From Alphaproteobacteria bacterium (GTDB lineage: Bacteria > Pseudomonadota > Alphaproteobacteria > UBA11073), in contig JABDAM010000001.1 in NCBI GenBank assembly GCA_013289145.1, positions 4,466-68,465 on the forward strand: a stretch of DNA of 64,000 nt. Direction: 5' to 3'. The translations under genes and the position numbers were made by a program. Every line of letters starts with the position of its first letter. Positions within the stretch are counted from its first letter, which is position 1. The notes beneath the pieces were generated by a model. That model had not been told where the DNA came from. It did not search any database and saw only the letters and a list, made by a program, of their open reading frames with translations. This document shows positions 2,026 through 20,541 of this stretch, in pieces.

Positions 2026-3540
2026 TCACGCCGCGCGGCGTCCGGATTCCTGATAAGCCCCAAACAAGTTTAACCATTCACGCGTGCGCGCTTCGGGGTT
2101 TGCATTTTGCGATACATCTGAAATCACCGCGATGCCCGTCGCCCCCGCTCCTAAAACCTCTCGCGCATTTTCCAAGGTGATACCGCCAATGGCAACCAAT
2201 TGCCCATTCAGCATCCGGCGCCAATTGCACAATGTATCCAAACCTTGCGCGCCGAAACGCAAAACCTTGCTGCTAGTCTGAAAAATCGGCCCGAGCGCAT
2301 GATAAGATGGCTGGCACGCAACCGCACGTGCAAGCTCGGCATATGAATGCGTGCTGAGGCCAAGGCGCAAACCGCTTTTGACAATAGCCGCGATGTCGGC
2401 TGCTTCGATATCTTCCTGCCCTAAATGGATGCCGTATGCTTTGTGTTTGATCGCGATTTCCCAATGATCGTTGATGAACAAACGGCAGTTATATTCCCGC
2501 CCGACCGCAATTGCGGCGCGGATTTCATTTTCTAATTCCGCGCCAGTTTTATCCTTGATACGCAGCTGCGCCGTCGTGACGCCAAGCGGCAATAACCGCC
2601 GCAACCAATCCGCGCTATCCGCTAGCGGATAAAACCCCAGCGGTGTGTCGCCGCAATCAGGGAAATGCGCGCGGTTTCGCCCCGCCACCGCATCTGCCGT
2701 CAGCCACGGAAAATCATCCGCCGTGCATGGCAAGGGTTGATAAGTTAAAATCGGCGCGTCCTGGCCGAGCGGCTGCGACAGGCGCGTGAATTGATTGACG
2801 CTTGCCTTTGCCATCACGACCGCATCTTCTTCGGAATAACTTAGTGCATGCGCCGCCGCGATGGCGGAAGCAAAACTGCAACCCGTCCCGCGCGCATCAG
2901 TGTTGCGGCGGCGCGGCGATGTCAGCCAGAAACTTTGCGCCGCTGACTGATAAAAATCCTGTACAAAACCATTACCGTTATTCCAGCCTTTTATGATCAC
3001 TGCGCGCGTGCCAAGCAGGCAAATAAGCATCGCTGCTTTGACCACGTCTTTGTCGTTGGCGATTTTTACACCCGATAAAGCTTCCGCTTCCCGCACATTA
3101 GGCGTCAACAAATTTGTTAGCGGCAATAAATGCTCCTTCATTAGCGCAACAACATCGTCGCCAATCAAAGCGCGTCCGGAGGAAGCAATCATCACAGGAT
3201 CGCACACCACATAACTGTTCAAATTCTTTAAATTCTCCGCTAGCGCGCGCACGCTGTCCGCGTTACCGAGCATCCCAATTTTAATCGCACGCGGCGGCAT
3301 GTCGGATTTCAGCGCGTTAATCTGCGCCTCCAGCATCTGCGCGGAAACGGATTCAACCGCTGTCACCGCGCCTGTATTCTGCGCCGTCAACGCCGCGATC
3401 ACCGTACAGCCGTGCACACCCATCGCGGCAAACGTTTTCAAATCTGCCTGGATTCCTGCGCCGCCGCAGCTGTCCGATCCCGCAATCGTCCAAACAATAG
3501 GCCGCTGTTCTGGCGCGCGCGGAGCGTAAATTTCAATCAC
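2026..3540 (-). CDS. thiDE: Bifunctional hydroxymethylpyrimidine/phosphomethylpyrimidine kinase (ThiD) fused to thiamine-phosphate synthase (ThiE)
   Basis: The N-terminus ([20 protein letters not shown]) is typical of ThiD. The C-terminal about 210 aa are ThiE-like (GIHLGQEDI...LGLSTHS). There is a 4-nt overlap with thiG. Confidence 0.85.
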
Positions 3541-4319
3541 GCGCGTTTCTCCTCTTTCCAGAATGGCGTGCCAAGCGTTGGTGTTGAAGGCTCTGCAAAA
3601 TCACGCCGCGGCATCAGGCCTGCTTCGTATCCCATACGCCCAGCTTCAATCGCGCGCGCGAAAGCCTGCGCCATTTTGGGCGCATCATCGGCCAAAGCAA
3701 TTGCAGTGTTCAGCATCACGGCATCATATCCCATTTCCATTACCTGCGCGGCATGGGAAGGGGCGCCAATTCCGGCGTCGATAATCAGTGTCGTTTCCGG
3801 AAAACGCGCGCGCAAAGTTTTCAGCGCCTGCGCATTCGCAATCCCCTGCCCCGATCCAATCGGCGCGGCCCAGGGCATTAAAATTTTACATCCCGCTGCA
3901 ACCAGGCGTTCGGCCACCACCAAATCTTCAGTTGTATAAGGAAAAACTTCGAACCCATCGGCGATCAAAATCCGCGCGGCTTCGACCAATGCAAAAGGAT
4001 CCGGCGCCAACGTATATTCATCGCCGACCGTCTCCAATTTAATCCAGTTGGTTTTGAAAACTTCGCGCGCCATGTGGGCCGTGGTGATGGCTTCCTGCAC
4101 GCTGCGGCAATTGGCGGTGTTGGGCAGAAAGGCGATATTCATTTCGCGCAGCAAATCCCAGAATTTATTGCCATCACCGGCGGCCTGGCGGCGCAGTGAA
4201 ACCGTGACGATTTCAATCCCCGAACGCGTAATGGCTTCGCGCAGATTTTCCGGCGAACGATACCGCGACGTGCCGAGAACCAACCGGCTGGAAAAATTTT
4301 TACCGCCCAATTGCCACAT
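3537..4319 (-). CDS. thiG: Thiazole synthase ThiG
   Basis: 260 aa with a ThiG-like sequence (IVTVSLRR...KLETVGDE...). Sits in thi operon context. Confidence 0.9.
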
Positions 4320-4320
4320 G

Positions 4321-4518
4321 TCAGCCTCCCTGCATCGGCATTAGAATTTCGATTTCATCGTTTTCCGCGATGGCGGTTGCATCATATTGATTACGCGGCA
4401 CACACGTCAGATTTTTCGCAACGGCAAAATAATCGCCTTCGTATCCCAATATTTTTGTTACATCCGCAATCGTGGCGGCATTTATCTCTTTCGCTTCGCC
4501 GTTGATGATGATTTTCAT
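4321..4518 (-). CDS. thiS: Sulfur-carrier protein ThiS
   Basis: MKIIINGE...MPMQGG: about 65 aa ending in the Gly-Gly of a ThiS/MoaD fold. The ATG overlaps the thiO stop (ATGA). The ORF-track N-terminal extension to 4581 is judged an artefact. Confidence 0.8.
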
Positions 4519-5588
4519 GCAGCCTCCCGAACCAAATATGGCATTGGCGCAGACGGCTGTGATTTTTCCGCCAGCTGGCAAGCATAATCCGTCAAAACCG
4601 GCGCGAGCAAAAAGCCATGGCGGTAAACGCCGTTGACACGGATCAAACCAGGCTGGTGCATAATGCGCGGCTCATTATCCGGAAAAGCCGGACGCAATCC
4701 GGTTAATGTTTCCAGAATGCGCGCCTCGCTGAACCCCGCGCTGATAGTAAAGGCGGCGCTGAGCATTTCGAGCATGGAACGCAGCGCAATTGGCGAAGCA
4801 TCTTCAGATTCAATCGTCGTCGCGCCGATGATATAATGGTTATCCGGCCTCGGCACGACATATAGCGGCCAGCGCGGGTGAAGCAGCCGCACCGGGCGAT
4901 TCAAATGCACATCTGGCGCGTGAAGACGAATGATTTCGCCACGCACGGCGCGGAGATTTTTGATATCCTTCGCCGCGCCGTAACCGCGGCAATCAAATAC
5001 CATATCGAATTTTGACGTTGCATTGCCGCAATCAATTTCATTCGGCCGGATCGCACGCACTTCCTGGCCGAAACGGCAATCTGCACCACGTTCGCGCGCG
5101 GCCATTAATAACGCCGCCAGTGCACCACGGCTGTCAATCTGACCTTCGGATGGGAAAAATAATCCAGACTGAAAACGGCTATCCAAATCCGGTTCAAATA
5201 CTTTTAATTCATCGCTTTTAATGTTTTGAAAAACATCTTCCGATGCGCGCGATTTAACCGTGCGCGCGAAATGTTCCAGTTCATCGCTGTTTTGCGGCGG
5301 CGCAACAACCAAACTGCCTGCCTGTTGAAAATAAACCGGCAAATCAAATTCACACAAAATCTCCGGCCACAACCGCAATGACAGCGCGCCTAAATCCGAT
5401 ACCGTTTTTTCCGCTACATCTAATTCGCAATAAGGGGCGAGCATTGCGGGCGATACGGAACTACAGGCTGTCGCTCCATCCTCCGCGCCGCGTTCGAATA
5501 ACGTTACTCGCCAGCCGCGCGCGCAGGCTTTCAGAGCAAGCAAACGCCCGATAATCCCCGCGCCCACGATGCCGATAGAAATAGTCAT
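4515..5588 (-). CDS. thiO: FAD-dependent glycine oxidase ThiO
   Basis: N-terminal GxGxxG ([10 protein letters not shown]). C-terminal ...[11 protein letters not shown]...HGFLLAP resembles B. subtilis ThiO. Confidence 0.85.
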
Positions 5589-19341: not shown

Positions 19342-19344
19342 GCC

Positions 19345-19908
19345 TTAGGGTTTAAACTTCCCCGTGATTTCCGCAATCCGTTTGCCAAACAATTTCGCCG
19401 TTTCGATGTCGCCGGATGGCGGTGAAACTTCAGGCGATTCATTATTCGCCTGTGTCATCAGGCCGGAAAAGCTGCCGACGCGGTTGATGTCGGTGGATTT
19501 CGCGACGTCCGTACCTGTGGGATCCGGACCGCGTTCGGTTTGACCGGTCCAAATCATGCCGTGCTGCATCGAGAATACCATCATATATGTGAGGGTCGAA
19601 AGTTTATCGCCGCTGGCGGAATGCGAATTGGTGAAACCCGCCGCGATTTTGTCTTGCCATTCGGACGCGAACCAGCGTTTGGATGAGGTATCGGCGAATT
19701 TTTTGAACTGCCAGGACACCGTGCCCATATAGGTGGGCGAGCCGAAAATGATCGCGCGCGCAGCGTCCAGTTTGGACCATTCGGCATCGGTGATGTTGCC
19801 TTCGGCGTCGATGGCGATCAGGTCGGCTTTCGCGCCTTCGGCGACGGCCTGCGCGACTTTGGCGGTGTGGCCGTAGCCGCTGTGATAAACAACTGCGATG
19901 TTTGACAT
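19345..19908 (-). CDS. wrbA: Flavodoxin-like NAD(P)H:quinone oxidoreductase (WrbA family)
   Basis: IAVVYHSGYGHTAKVAQAVAEGA resembles the WrbA N-terminus. 187 aa. Confidence 0.7.
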   Translation of the reverse strand: MSNIAVVYHSGYGHTAKVAQAVAEGAKADLIAIDAEGNITDAEWSKLDAARAIIFGSPTYMGTVSWQFKKFADTSSKRWFASEWQDKIAAGFTNSHSASGDKLSTLTYMMVFSMQHGMIWTGQTERGPDPTGTDVAKSTDINRVGSFSGLMTQANNESPEVSPPSGDIETAKLFGKRIAEITGKFKP

Positions 19909-19956
19909 GGTGTTCTCCCGTTTGGTGTCAGAGAGATAGGAAGGATTTGACCCGAG

Positions 19957-20541
19957 TCAAGCGCCGCACAATTCGAGGAACCGCCGGTGCATCGGCGACG
20001 GCGTGTCGGGCGACAGTTCGGGGTGGAAGGTTGTCGCCATCGTATGGCCATATTCCACCCAGACGGGATGACCGCCATGTTCCGCCAGGATATTCACGCC
20101 CGCGCCGACAGTTTCGATCACGGGCGCGCGGATGAAGGCGACGTCATAGCCGTTGACCTGAGCATGAAAACTGTCGAGCTGGCTGCCGTAGGCGTTGCGC
20201 TGGACGCGGATCGGTAAAGCGCCGAAGGAGAATTGGGCGGGGTTAGTGACTTCATCGGCCAGCAGGATAGCACCCGCGCAGATGCCCCAGGCAGGGCGGG
20301 ATTTGACGAAGGCGCCAATGGGCTCGCGCAGGTGGTAGTAATCCATGATCCGCAGCATGGCGGAACTTTCCCCGCCGGGGAGGATCAGGCCGTCGAGGGC
20401 CGCCAAGTCTTCGGCATGGCGCACCTCCACGGGCTCGGCGCCCCCCATTTCATTGAGAGCGGCGATGTGGGGGTAATGCGGGGTGACGGCGCCTTGCAGC
20501 GCGAGAACTCCGATGCGATACATGAGGTGATAGATGGCCAT
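19957..20541 (-). CDS. pdxT: Pyridoxal 5'-phosphate synthase glutaminase subunit PdxT. The start could be 20523 or 20541.
   Basis: RIGVLALQGA...LILPGGES...GICAG...FHPE triad motifs. Confidence 0.85.
   Translation of the reverse strand: MAIYHLMYRIGVLALQGAVTPHYPHIAALNEMGGAEPVEVRHAEDLAALDGLILPGGESSAMLRIMDYYHLREPIGAFVKSRPAWGICAGAILLADEVTNPAQFSFGALPIRVQRNAYGSQLDSFHAQVNGYDVAFIRAPVIETVGAGVNILAEHGGHPVWVEYGHTMATTFHPELSPDTPSPMHRRFLELCGA

Follow-up and report, generated by a model that had tools for sequence, protein, structure and literature searches.

We analysed a 64,000-nt stretch of the genome of a divergent, uncultured soil alphaproteobacterium (assembly GCA_013289145.1, contig JABDAM010000001.1, positions 4,466 to 68,465 of the forward strand; hereafter the window), in which genes for the supply of pyridoxal 5'-phosphate (PLP), heme, nicotinamide adenine dinucleotide (NAD) and thiamine form a co-directional array of about 18.5 kb on the minus strand. 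Comparison with related genomes showed the array to be a chain of conserved modules rather than a single evolutionary unit. The explanation that we favour, with somewhat better than even confidence, is modular concatenation with substantial co-transcription.

An ORF listing combined with Pfam and NCBIfam scans gave an unbroken run of 16 minus-strand open reading frames (ORFs) at 2026-20601. A first-pass annotation of this DNA had counted 17 genes; its picture of a tightly packed cofactor array of about 18.5 kb with overlapping stops and starts agreed with the gene identities and junctions that we read from the sequence. In the order of transcription, the genes are pdxT, a gene for a WrbA-like flavodoxin (wrbA in the junctions below), hemH, the gene for 5-aminolevulinate synthase (ALAS), hemC/D, hemB, hemE, hemN, hemY, nadE, thiF, thiC, thiO, thiS, thiG and thiD/E. 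Because thiD/E and hemC/D are fusions (the latter predicted from a structural model, see below), the 16 ORFs account for 18 enzyme activities. NCBIfam equivalog cut-offs were passed by ALAS, HemC, HemN, HemY, HemH, PdxT and ThiO.

Start codons were picked using Shine-Dalgarno (SD) motifs and alignment to relatives. The resulting junctions (in nt, with negative values for overlaps) were: pdxT/wrbA, +48; wrbA/hemH, +3; hemH/ALAS, -14; ALAS/hemC, +9; hemC/hemB, +8; hemB/hemE, -11; hemE/hemN, -4 (ATGA); hemN/hemY, -1 (TAATG); hemY/nadE, +36 (+12 with a TTG start); nadE/thiF, -11; thiF/thiC, +164; thiC/thiO, -4; thiO/thiS, -4; thiS/thiG, +1; and thiG/thiDE, -4 (GTGA). Twelve of the 15 junctions were ≤12 nt. 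For comparison, genes were called crudely in the remainder of the window, where four of 19 same-strand junctions were this short (Fisher p=0.0014); the median junction was -1 nt in the array versus 50 nt there. The longest same-strand run elsewhere in the window comprised six genes. A recognisable SD lies within the preceding gene for 10 of the 15 internal starts, which agrees with translational coupling.

The junctions singled out in the first-pass annotation were read correctly (the TAATG of hemN/hemY, the ATGA overlaps, and the values of 14 nt for hemH/ALAS, 11 nt for nadE/thiF and 164 nt for thiF/thiC). It had also described the junctions as overlapping by 1-38 nt or being 1-12 nt apart, with only the thiF-thiC and pdxT-wrbA gaps any wider. 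This holds for most of them, but the 38-nt overlap arises only with the longest hemE ORF, the SD-supported start giving 11 nt, and a third wide gap has to be added to the two named, since hemY and nadE are 36 nt apart when measured from the favoured ATG at 10864 (12 nt only from the TTG at 10888). The GC content at third codon positions (GC3) also changes along the array, from 0.76 in pdxT to 0.64 in hemH and the ALAS gene, 0.52 in hemN and hemY, 0.46 in nadE and thiF, and 0.55-0.59 from thiC to thiDE. The lowest point coincides with the junction between modules (nadE, thiF).

Modules shared with related genomes

Relatives were located using the HemC protein and their contigs read (loci L014-L024), with the region in L014-L019 summarised by tblastn. 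The closest are Joint Genome Institute (JGI) and European Nucleotide Archive (ENA) metagenome assemblies, with relatives present in the JGI soil samples 3300009093 and 3300025913. In L014-L016, where HemC is 73% identical to that of the window, the order is pdxS-pdxT-hemH-ALAS-hemC-hemB-hemE-hemN-hemY-nadE, followed by convergent unrelated genes. L018 and L019 (HemC 70% identical) carry the same block with two additions that the window shares: the flavodoxin gene follows pdxT, ahead of hemH, and an opposite-strand ankyrin gene separates pdxS from pdxT. Neither L014-L016 nor L018/L019 have thi genes behind nadE. Four further loci hold hemH-ALAS-hemCD-B-E-N-Y only (L020, HemC 65% identical), hemCD-B-E-N-Y only (L017, 68%), ALAS-hemCD-B-E-N-Y-hemH (L021, 48%) or, in a metagenome-assembled genome (MAG) labelled Rickettsiales, hemC-hemE only (L022, 44%).

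The junctions have been retained along with the gene order. Offsets in L014-L016 are those of the window at hemH/ALAS (-14), ALAS/hemC (+9), hemB/hemE (-11), hemE/hemN (-4) and hemN/hemY (-1), with proteins that are 62-86% identical; in L018/L019 the hemE/hemN and hemN/hemY offsets are unchanged and the other junctions are off by a few nt. Preservation of the junction geometry in diverged relatives fits with selection for coupled expression.

The thiamine genes were found as a separate block. L028, which comes from the same sample as L014, has thiF-[264 nt]-thiC-O-S-G-DE alone, with 101 nt between thiF and a thiamine pyrophosphate (TPP) riboswitch. In L029, an Alphaproteobacteria MAG (2881-10089), thiF-riboswitch-thiCOSGDE lies 5 nt behind a complete trpD-C-F-B-A-E/G operon, with the aptamer 15 nt past the thiF stop. 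The TPP element in the thiF-thiC gap scored 50.5 bits in L028 and 47.1 bits in L029, slightly below the gathering score, and the internal thi junctions (-4, -4, +1, -4) are the same in the window, L028 and L029. Among the genomes compared, the thi block is joined to the hem-nadE block only in the window, and a metagenome scan with NadE, which matched two contigs already among those compared and one short contig, returned no closer relative carrying the nadE-thiF junction. With nadE ahead of it in the window and a trp operon ahead of it in L029, the thi module illustrates how operons can grow by docking end to end.

The gene at the docking point, nadE (8519..10864, minus strand), encodes a long glutamine-dependent NAD+ synthetase with CN_hydrolase (PF00795) and NAD_synthase (PF02540) domains, matching PDB 3ILV over both domains (E 5.8e-54). 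The protein is 781 aa from the ATG at 10864, the start favoured by the relatives' alignment, or 789 aa from the TTG at 10888. This is unusually long (777-789 aa), exceeding 3ILV by ~150 residues, and it scored far under every NCBIfam equivalog cut-off (e.g. 127.8 versus 479 bits). A 777-aa orthologue occupies the same position behind hemY in L014-L019, and long NadE proteins that are 48-60% identical were also present in at least 13 GTDB MAGs (carrying the labels Alphaproteobacteria, Rickettsiales, Micavibrio or Rhodospirillaceae). The window NadE extends eight residues past the aligned end of the relatives' NadE, exactly at the thiF overlap, which fits a lineage-specific docking event. Elsewhere in the window, nadA (50273-51286) and nadC (48410-49273) flank a 301-aa ORF without a Pfam match (49320-50225) on the minus strand; being ~38 kb from nadE, these de novo NAD genes are outside the array.

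The first-pass annotation had regarded the arrangement as unusual for Alphaproteobacteria, adding that it would be unremarkable if commonplace in relatives. For the class, the claim stands: in the 13 alphaproteobacterial MAG loci with a long NadE (L001-L013), there was no other array gene within 10 kb of nadE. For the pdxT-hem-nadE block it does not, as this is common to the two nearest relative lineages and so is ordinary within the clade.

The predicted HemC-HemD fusion and the heme pathway

The 491-aa 'HemC' of the array is, on the evidence of its modelled structure, a HemC-HemD fusion with predicted uroporphyrinogen-III synthase (UroS) activity. The HemC (hydroxymethylbilane synthase) part (16152..17036, minus strand) matches PF01379 and scored 201.9 bits against a TIGR00212 cut-off of 164. 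PDB HemC sequences align to residues 3-270, including the GGC cofactor-cysteine motif, and HemC homology stops near residue 270-300, shortly past the GGC cysteine. An AlphaFold2 (AF2) model of the full-length protein had a predicted local distance difference test (pLDDT) score of 93.8; its Foldseek search was dominated by the HemC part, with HemC structures matched over ~300 columns. For the model of the C-terminal 196 aa (15561..16151, minus strand; AF2 pLDDT 91.5), the top 10 Foldseek PDB matches were all uroporphyrinogen-III synthases (3MW8, 4ES6, 3D8T/R/S, 1WCX, 3RE1, 1WD7). E-values ran from 1.9e-5 (3MW8) to 1.1e-3, and the best template modelling (TM) score was a TMq of 0.63 (3RE1); the next matches were unrelated folds with a TM of ~0.2. 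The fusion of hemD to hemC had been overlooked in the first-pass annotation.

Several points weigh against the HemD assignment. It comes from the predicted fold only, with TM-scores of 0.4-0.63, and the domain is ~50 residues shorter than the solved HemDs. There is no sequence link to HemD: hhalign against Escherichia coli HemD gave a probability of 0.7%, the 196 aa had no Pfam match even at E≤10, and a profile search of PDB sequences was empty. HemD is a two-lobed, hinge-flexible enzyme, so modest TM-scores are to be expected.

The C-terminal ~200 residues are strongly conserved over 48 homologues (Alphaproteobacteria, Oligoflexia, Bdellovibrionota and Steroidobacteraceae MAGs), with 21 invariant columns across 25 homologues. 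The 'HemC' proteins of related clusters are ~490-525 aa rather than ~310, and none of the related hem clusters that we read contains a recognisable separate hemD. In a profile search of 1.84 billion representatives, 748 proteins carried the C-terminal domain. Among the matches listed (150 of 748), most were ~500-aa HemC fusions or shorter fragments, but there were also triple fusions, GluTR-HemC-HemD-like (GluTR, glutamyl-tRNA reductase) and ALAS-HemC-HemD-like, that echo the gene order of the operon. Triple fusions from metagenomic protein sets included P0281, P0336 (~800 aa) and P0367 (917 aa), which could be genuine or could be gene-calling read-throughs. If the assignment is right, hemD in this clade, and apparently in several hundred lineages across the database (748 cluster representatives), would not be missing; it would be hidden as a sequence-unrecognisable domain of HemC, with 'hydroxymethylbilane synthase' as the sole annotation of the protein, and automated pathway reconstruction would wrongly call such genomes heme-incomplete.

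Because the HemC C-terminal domain appears to be a HemD-like fold, the predicted heme pathway of the array is complete and protoporphyrin-dependent, with the HemD step assigned on fold evidence. The genes from ALA formation to protoporphyrin(ogen), together with hemH, are contiguous on one strand. All of the following lie on the minus strand. The ferrochelatase gene hemH has a GTG start (18298..19341; PF00762, E 6e-100; TIGR00109, 270 bits versus a cut-off of 124.6). The ALAS gene (alphaproteobacterial 'hemA', C4 route; 17046..18311) scored 611 bits against a TIGR01821 cut-off of 338.55; its ATG at 18311 is preceded by a GGGAG SD motif and overlaps the hemH stop. The protein shares 81-85% identity with a small number of proteins from metagenomes and 57-63% with the ALAS of named Alphaproteobacteria, among them Hyphobacterium, Maricaulis, Caenispirillum, Azospirillaceae and Hyphomicrobiaceae. 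Porphobilinogen synthase is encoded by hemB (14548..15552; PF00490, E 2.6e-105) and uroporphyrinogen decarboxylase by hemE (13503..14558; PF01208, E 8.5e-82), which has a GGGAG SD before the ATG at 14558 and overlaps the hemB stop. They are followed by hemN for oxygen-independent coproporphyrinogen III oxidase, a radical S-adenosylmethionine (SAM) enzyme (12142..13506; TIGR00538, 426.6 bits versus a cut-off of 324.95), and by a gene for a 413-aa hemY-type protoporphyrinogen oxidase (10901..12142; TIGR00562, 115.9 bits versus a cut-off of 97.85; PF01593). Pfam and NCBIfam scans found no GluTR or Aminotran_3 (hemL) gene in the array, and neither a HisKA/HATPase nor a response-regulator ORF lay between hemB and hemE in the ORF listing and Pfam scan.

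Transcription of the array and its surroundings

The thi module opens with the gene called thiF here, for a ThiF/MoeB-family adenylyltransferase with a C-terminal rhodanese domain (7423..8529, minus strand; PF00899, PF00581; MoeZ-like). The product passes only the MoeB subfamily cut-off (NF004281, 278.5 versus 266 bits), its ThiF score being too low (TIGR02356, 247.4 versus 275.25). A TPP riboswitch had been placed in the thiF-thiC gap by the first-pass annotation, and Rfam confirmed it: RF00059 matched at 7308..7408 (minus strand) with 62.2 bits, above the gathering score of 54.3, over the full-length model (1-105). The aptamer starts 14 nt past the thiF stop and ends 49 nt before the thiC ATG. 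The intervening sequence (7259..7307, minus strand) is the putative expression platform, in which a candidate anti-SD, CUUCCC, is complementary to the thiC SD, GAGGAAG; the pairing is kept in L028. No hairpin with a U-tract, i.e. no terminator, was found in 7259-7307. Most likely, the riboswitch would gate thiC translation by SD sequestration within a longer mRNA, as the sequence and alignment suggest; an SD-sequestering platform is typical of Gram-negative TPP riboswitches.

Behind the riboswitch on the minus strand are thiC, for the radical-SAM hydroxymethylpyrimidine phosphate (HMP-P) synthase (5585..7258; PF01964, E 2.9e-188; PF13667); thiO, for glycine oxidase (4515..5588; TIGR02352, 260.1 bits versus a cut-off of 250.8); thiS, for the 65-aa sulfur carrier (4321..4518; PF02597 on residues 24-86 of a longer ORF, with a GGGAGG SD before the ATG at 4518 and 65-aa orthologues in L028 and L029); thiG, for thiazole synthase (3537..4319; PF05690, E 6.6e-98); and the thiD-thiE fusion, for HMP-P kinase and thiamine monophosphate (TMP) synthase (2026..3540; PF08543, PF02581). 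In all three genomes examined, thiF lies upstream of the riboswitch and so is outside TPP control, a placement that would make sense for an enzyme shared between sulfur-carrier pathways.

We propose that the tight same-strand array arose by operon modules docking end to end. One module would be pdxT-(WrbA-like flavodoxin)-hemH-ALAS-hemC/D-hemB-hemE-hemN-hemY-nadE; the other, consisting of the ThiF/MoeB-rhodanese gene, the TPP riboswitch and thiC-O-S-G-DE, would have come to lie directly behind nadE with the 11-nt overlap. Transcription would begin in the non-coding DNA upstream of pdxT and run through most or all of the array, whilst the overlapping or abutting stops and starts would couple translation of adjacent cistrons. 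The position of the aptamer so close behind the thiF stop leaves no intergenic room for a promoter, and the thiC leader is most simply made by read-through from thiF. The riboswitch would then act as an internal gate: where TPP is plentiful, thiC and, via coupling, thiOSGDE would be turned off, and the genes upstream would be unaffected. A speculative selective logic is matched supply, since ALAS needs PLP, and the radical-SAM enzymes HemN and ThiC need a flavodoxin-type reductant. Judged from the sequence, co-transcription and translational coupling are plausible.

The sole sizeable non-coding stretch upstream of the array is 20542..20966, shared with a divergent ankyrin gene, and this is the likeliest site of the main promoter. 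It measures 365 nt when the longest pdxT ORF is taken and 425-443 nt with the preferred starts. Minus-strand promoter-like matches occurred at 20916-20889 and 21100-21073, at chance level overall. Upstream of pdxT, at 20744-20873, the sequence holds nested G/C-rich inverted repeats (CGGATGAGGGGAGG / CCTCCCCTCACCCG / CGGGAGAGGGGA) together with a GATTTGCTAAGT palindrome; these could be repetitive extragenic palindromic (REP)-like elements or operator sites. No Irr iron control element (ICE) box (TTTAGAA-N3-TTCTAAA, with ≤3 mismatches) was found near the array. Inside the array, only the 48-nt, 36-nt and 164-nt gaps possibly give intergenic room for promoters. Sigma-70 promoter and terminator consensus scans gave counts equal to the shuffled expectation.

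A number of these observations count against co-transcription of docked modules. With the scans at chance level, internal promoters are neither detected nor excluded. A clear SD is absent at the hemY, nadE and hemN starts, and the minimum free energy (MFE) fold of the expression platform is no more stable than shuffled sequences (z=-0.14). A single mRNA of 18.5 kb would be unusually long, and promoters could well lie within the coding sequence of nadE or thiF. The full array was found in one genome only, and the nadE-thiF junction might accordingly have arisen by neutral rearrangement.

A possible, although clearly less probable, alternative is that the array is a co-directional cluster of several transcription units (e.g. 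pdxT-wrbA, hem, nadE, thiF and riboswitch-thiCOSGDE), with promoters in upstream coding sequence and the close spacing reflecting genome compaction. The genome is indeed compact in general, with three convergent gene pairs at 0-nt spacing, but same-strand junctions elsewhere in the window are far wider (median 50 versus -1 nt, p about 0.002) and so compaction alone would be insufficient to produce the overlaps, whose lengths are moreover kept in relatives in spite of 14-38% protein divergence. Minus-strand promoter-like matches are present inside nadE (9840-9813, 9904-9875 and 10711-10682) and hemE (14368-14340); such matches are as frequent in shuffled sequence. The thi module in L028 stands alone with its own upstream region and with 101 nt separating thiF from the riboswitch, which would suit a separate unit, as would the GC3 drift along the array (0.76 to 0.46 to 0.59); conversely, the riboswitch is 14-15 nt past the thiF stop in both the window and L029.

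At the other extreme, the whole array might be a single polycistronic unit for 'cofactor provisioning' in a host-associated alphaproteobacterium, with one promoter, the TPP riboswitch as the sole pathway-specific valve and the flavodoxin as a dedicated reductant for HemN and ThiC. We consider this improbable. The ankyrin-repeat genes inside and beside the locus have been pointed to for the host-associated part of this idea. If true, natural evolution would have produced a transplantable multi-vitamin/heme cassette, in which ALAS has taken the place of GluTR and HemL in what is otherwise an operon of the C5 type. Also improbable is a horizontally acquired cofactor island: a hem operon of the Leptospira/Oligoflexia type would have entered this alphaproteobacterial clade from outside, with the native ALAS then swapped in, and pdxT, nadE and thi accreted. 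The fused HemC/D and the order hemCD-hemB-...-hemE-hemN-hemY are common to Oligoflexia, Bdellovibrionota and Steroidobacteraceae MAGs, the ALAS is clearly of the alphaproteobacterial type, the linkage is absent from other alphaproteobacterial MAGs with the same NadE, and a tRNA-Tyr gene adjoins pdxS. However, other putative alphaproteobacterial and Rickettsiales MAGs also contain a fused HemC/D (44-48% identity), making vertical descent in a deep clade equally possible, and no flanking direct repeats were seen in the repeat search, which covered 20560-21000 only. An origin as a mobile element or island was rejected on two grounds: there was no integrase, transposase or plasmid gene among the flanking genes scanned with Pfam, and GC and GC3 are within the window's own range. 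We therefore retain the docking of conserved modules, with substantial co-transcription, as the preferred reading.

The PLP synthase genes are split in the window. The glutaminase subunit is encoded by pdxT (19957..20541, minus strand; PF01174 SNO, E 3.9e-41; TIGR03800, 166.9 bits versus a cut-off of 105.55), for which an alternative start is at 20523 and the longest ORF reaches 20601; gene calls in relatives are 189-190 aa. The synthase subunit gene, pdxS (22071..22967, minus strand; PF01680, E 3e-108; start at M42 of the ORF), encodes a protein with 89-90% identity to those in L014 and L018. Between the two sits a plus-strand ankyrin-repeat gene (20967-22070), a separation that the first-pass annotation had missed. 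The same split is seen in L018/L019 (5393-6082), and the two pdx genes are adjacent in L014; i.e. the ankyrin insertion is in the 70%-identity relative and not in the 73%-identity relative. L018 has a second ankyrin gene nearby. As pdxS is convergent with the ankyrin gene, its co-transcription with pdxT is impossible.

Directly behind pdxT is the gene for the 187-aa WrbA-like flavodoxin-fold protein (19345..19908, minus strand), which has FMN_red and Flavodoxin_5 Pfam matches. The first-pass annotation had called it the quinone reductase wrbA, but it missed both WrbA equivalog cut-offs (NF002999, 77.3 versus 141 bits; TIGR01755, 59.6 versus 132.5 bits). It belongs instead to the family of PDB 3D7N ('Flavodoxin, WrbA-like protein', E 9e-60), a structural-genomics entry that is its closest solved structure. 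The Flavodoxin_5 match raised the possibility of a HemG-type protoporphyrinogen oxidase; this was ruled out by the 3D7N match and by the presence of a HemY that passes its equivalog cut-off. L018/L019 have this gene in the corresponding place; L014 lacks it.

At the far end of the array, thiDE is convergent, at 0 nt, with a gene for a DyP-type (heme-dependent) peroxidase (787-2025, plus strand), itself preceded by an SMP-30/gluconolactonase-like gene. Abutting stops with zero bases between them occur at three convergent pairs in the window: 2023-2028 (TGA|TCA), 22068-22073 (TAA|TCA) and 30064-30069 (TGA|TTA). This spacing leaves no room for terminators, and convergent transcripts would consequently overlap. 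Large ORFs (405-718 aa) without a Pfam match are found at 23114-25270 and 25242-27293 (both minus strand), 28126-29343, 30067-31599 and 33470-35296; the first two overlap head to tail just past pdxS and tRNA-Tyr (23011-23096). The window also encodes ankyrin-repeat proteins, many ORFs without a Pfam match, and a zeta-toxin/AAA_33-like ORF (57815-58702, minus strand).

Comparison with known systems

In model Alphaproteobacteria, the hem genes are dispersed. In Bacillus subtilis they are grouped rather than scattered, as in the window, in hemAXCDBL and hemEHY; this arrangement differs from the window in comprising two operons with separate hemC and hemD genes, following the C5 route and having no attached cofactor genes, and is coproporphyrin-dependent. 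We found no literature report of a heme-NAD-PLP-thiamine gene combination, or of a complete alphaproteobacterial arrangement in one run.

A closer parallel is found in Leptospira, where HemC and HemD are one bifunctional enzyme in a hemACBLENG cluster that also holds the HemKR two-component system (PMC11426443); 10.1101/2021.02.09.429727 cites Guegan et al. 2003 for the HemC/D fusion. The Oligoflexia locus L023 has the Leptospira layout (GluTR-hemC/D-hemB-hemL-HK-RR-hemE-hemN-hemY, where HK is a histidine kinase and RR a response regulator), and an HK and RR are also present in L024. The window shares with Leptospira the co-directional order of first enzyme, hemC/D and hemB, then hemE, hemN and protoporphyrinogen oxidase, and a HemC with a C-terminal HemD-fold domain (here by model) without a separate hemD. 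It differs in making ALA by ALAS (C4) rather than by GluTR and HemL, in having no embedded HemKR, in including hemH, upstream, and in having pdxT and the flavodoxin gene in front and nadE and thi genes behind. By analogy of gene order and fusion, the hem core of the window may be best described as a Leptospira-type hem operon with ALAS at the GluTR position, hemL and the two-component system absent, and hemH added.

The thi part resembles the TPP-riboswitch thi operons of Proteobacteria (thiCEFSGH in E. coli; thiCOSG(E) in Alphaproteobacteria) in having an RF00059 aptamer just upstream of thiC and overlapped thiO-thiS-thiG-thiD/E behind them. Unlike in those operons, the riboswitch of the window is internal to a longer array, 14 nt past the preceding stop, and the gene for the ThiS-activating enzyme is upstream of it (as also in L028 and L029). 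The window is thus a candidate example of a riboswitch working inside a long mRNA. As a whole, the array recalls the super- or uber-operons reportedly described by Lathe, Snel and Bork in 2000 as conserved neighbourhoods of functionally related operons. The likeness lies in independent cofactor-supply operons being juxtaposed on one strand with a membership that varies among relatives; the differences are that the array of the window is in one genome, and that the link between heme, NAD, PLP and thiamine is loose save for the need of ALAS for PLP.

An 18.5-kb fragment with complete heme and de novo thiamine synthesis may be of interest for pathway transplantation, and an operon scaffold that is headed by either GluTR and HemL or ALAS provides a case for studying C4/C5 replacement. 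Current understanding is not overturned. Each part of the array is of a known kind: a Leptospira-type hem operon with HemC/D, a TPP-riboswitch thi operon, PdxT and NadE. What differs from the known examples is that the hem operon is headed by ALAS, that the full pathway with hemH is in one alphaproteobacterial run, that pdxT, nadE and thi are appended, and that the riboswitch is internal. The array is therefore a neat variant rather than a new kind of system, produced by an unsurprising concatenation of operons.

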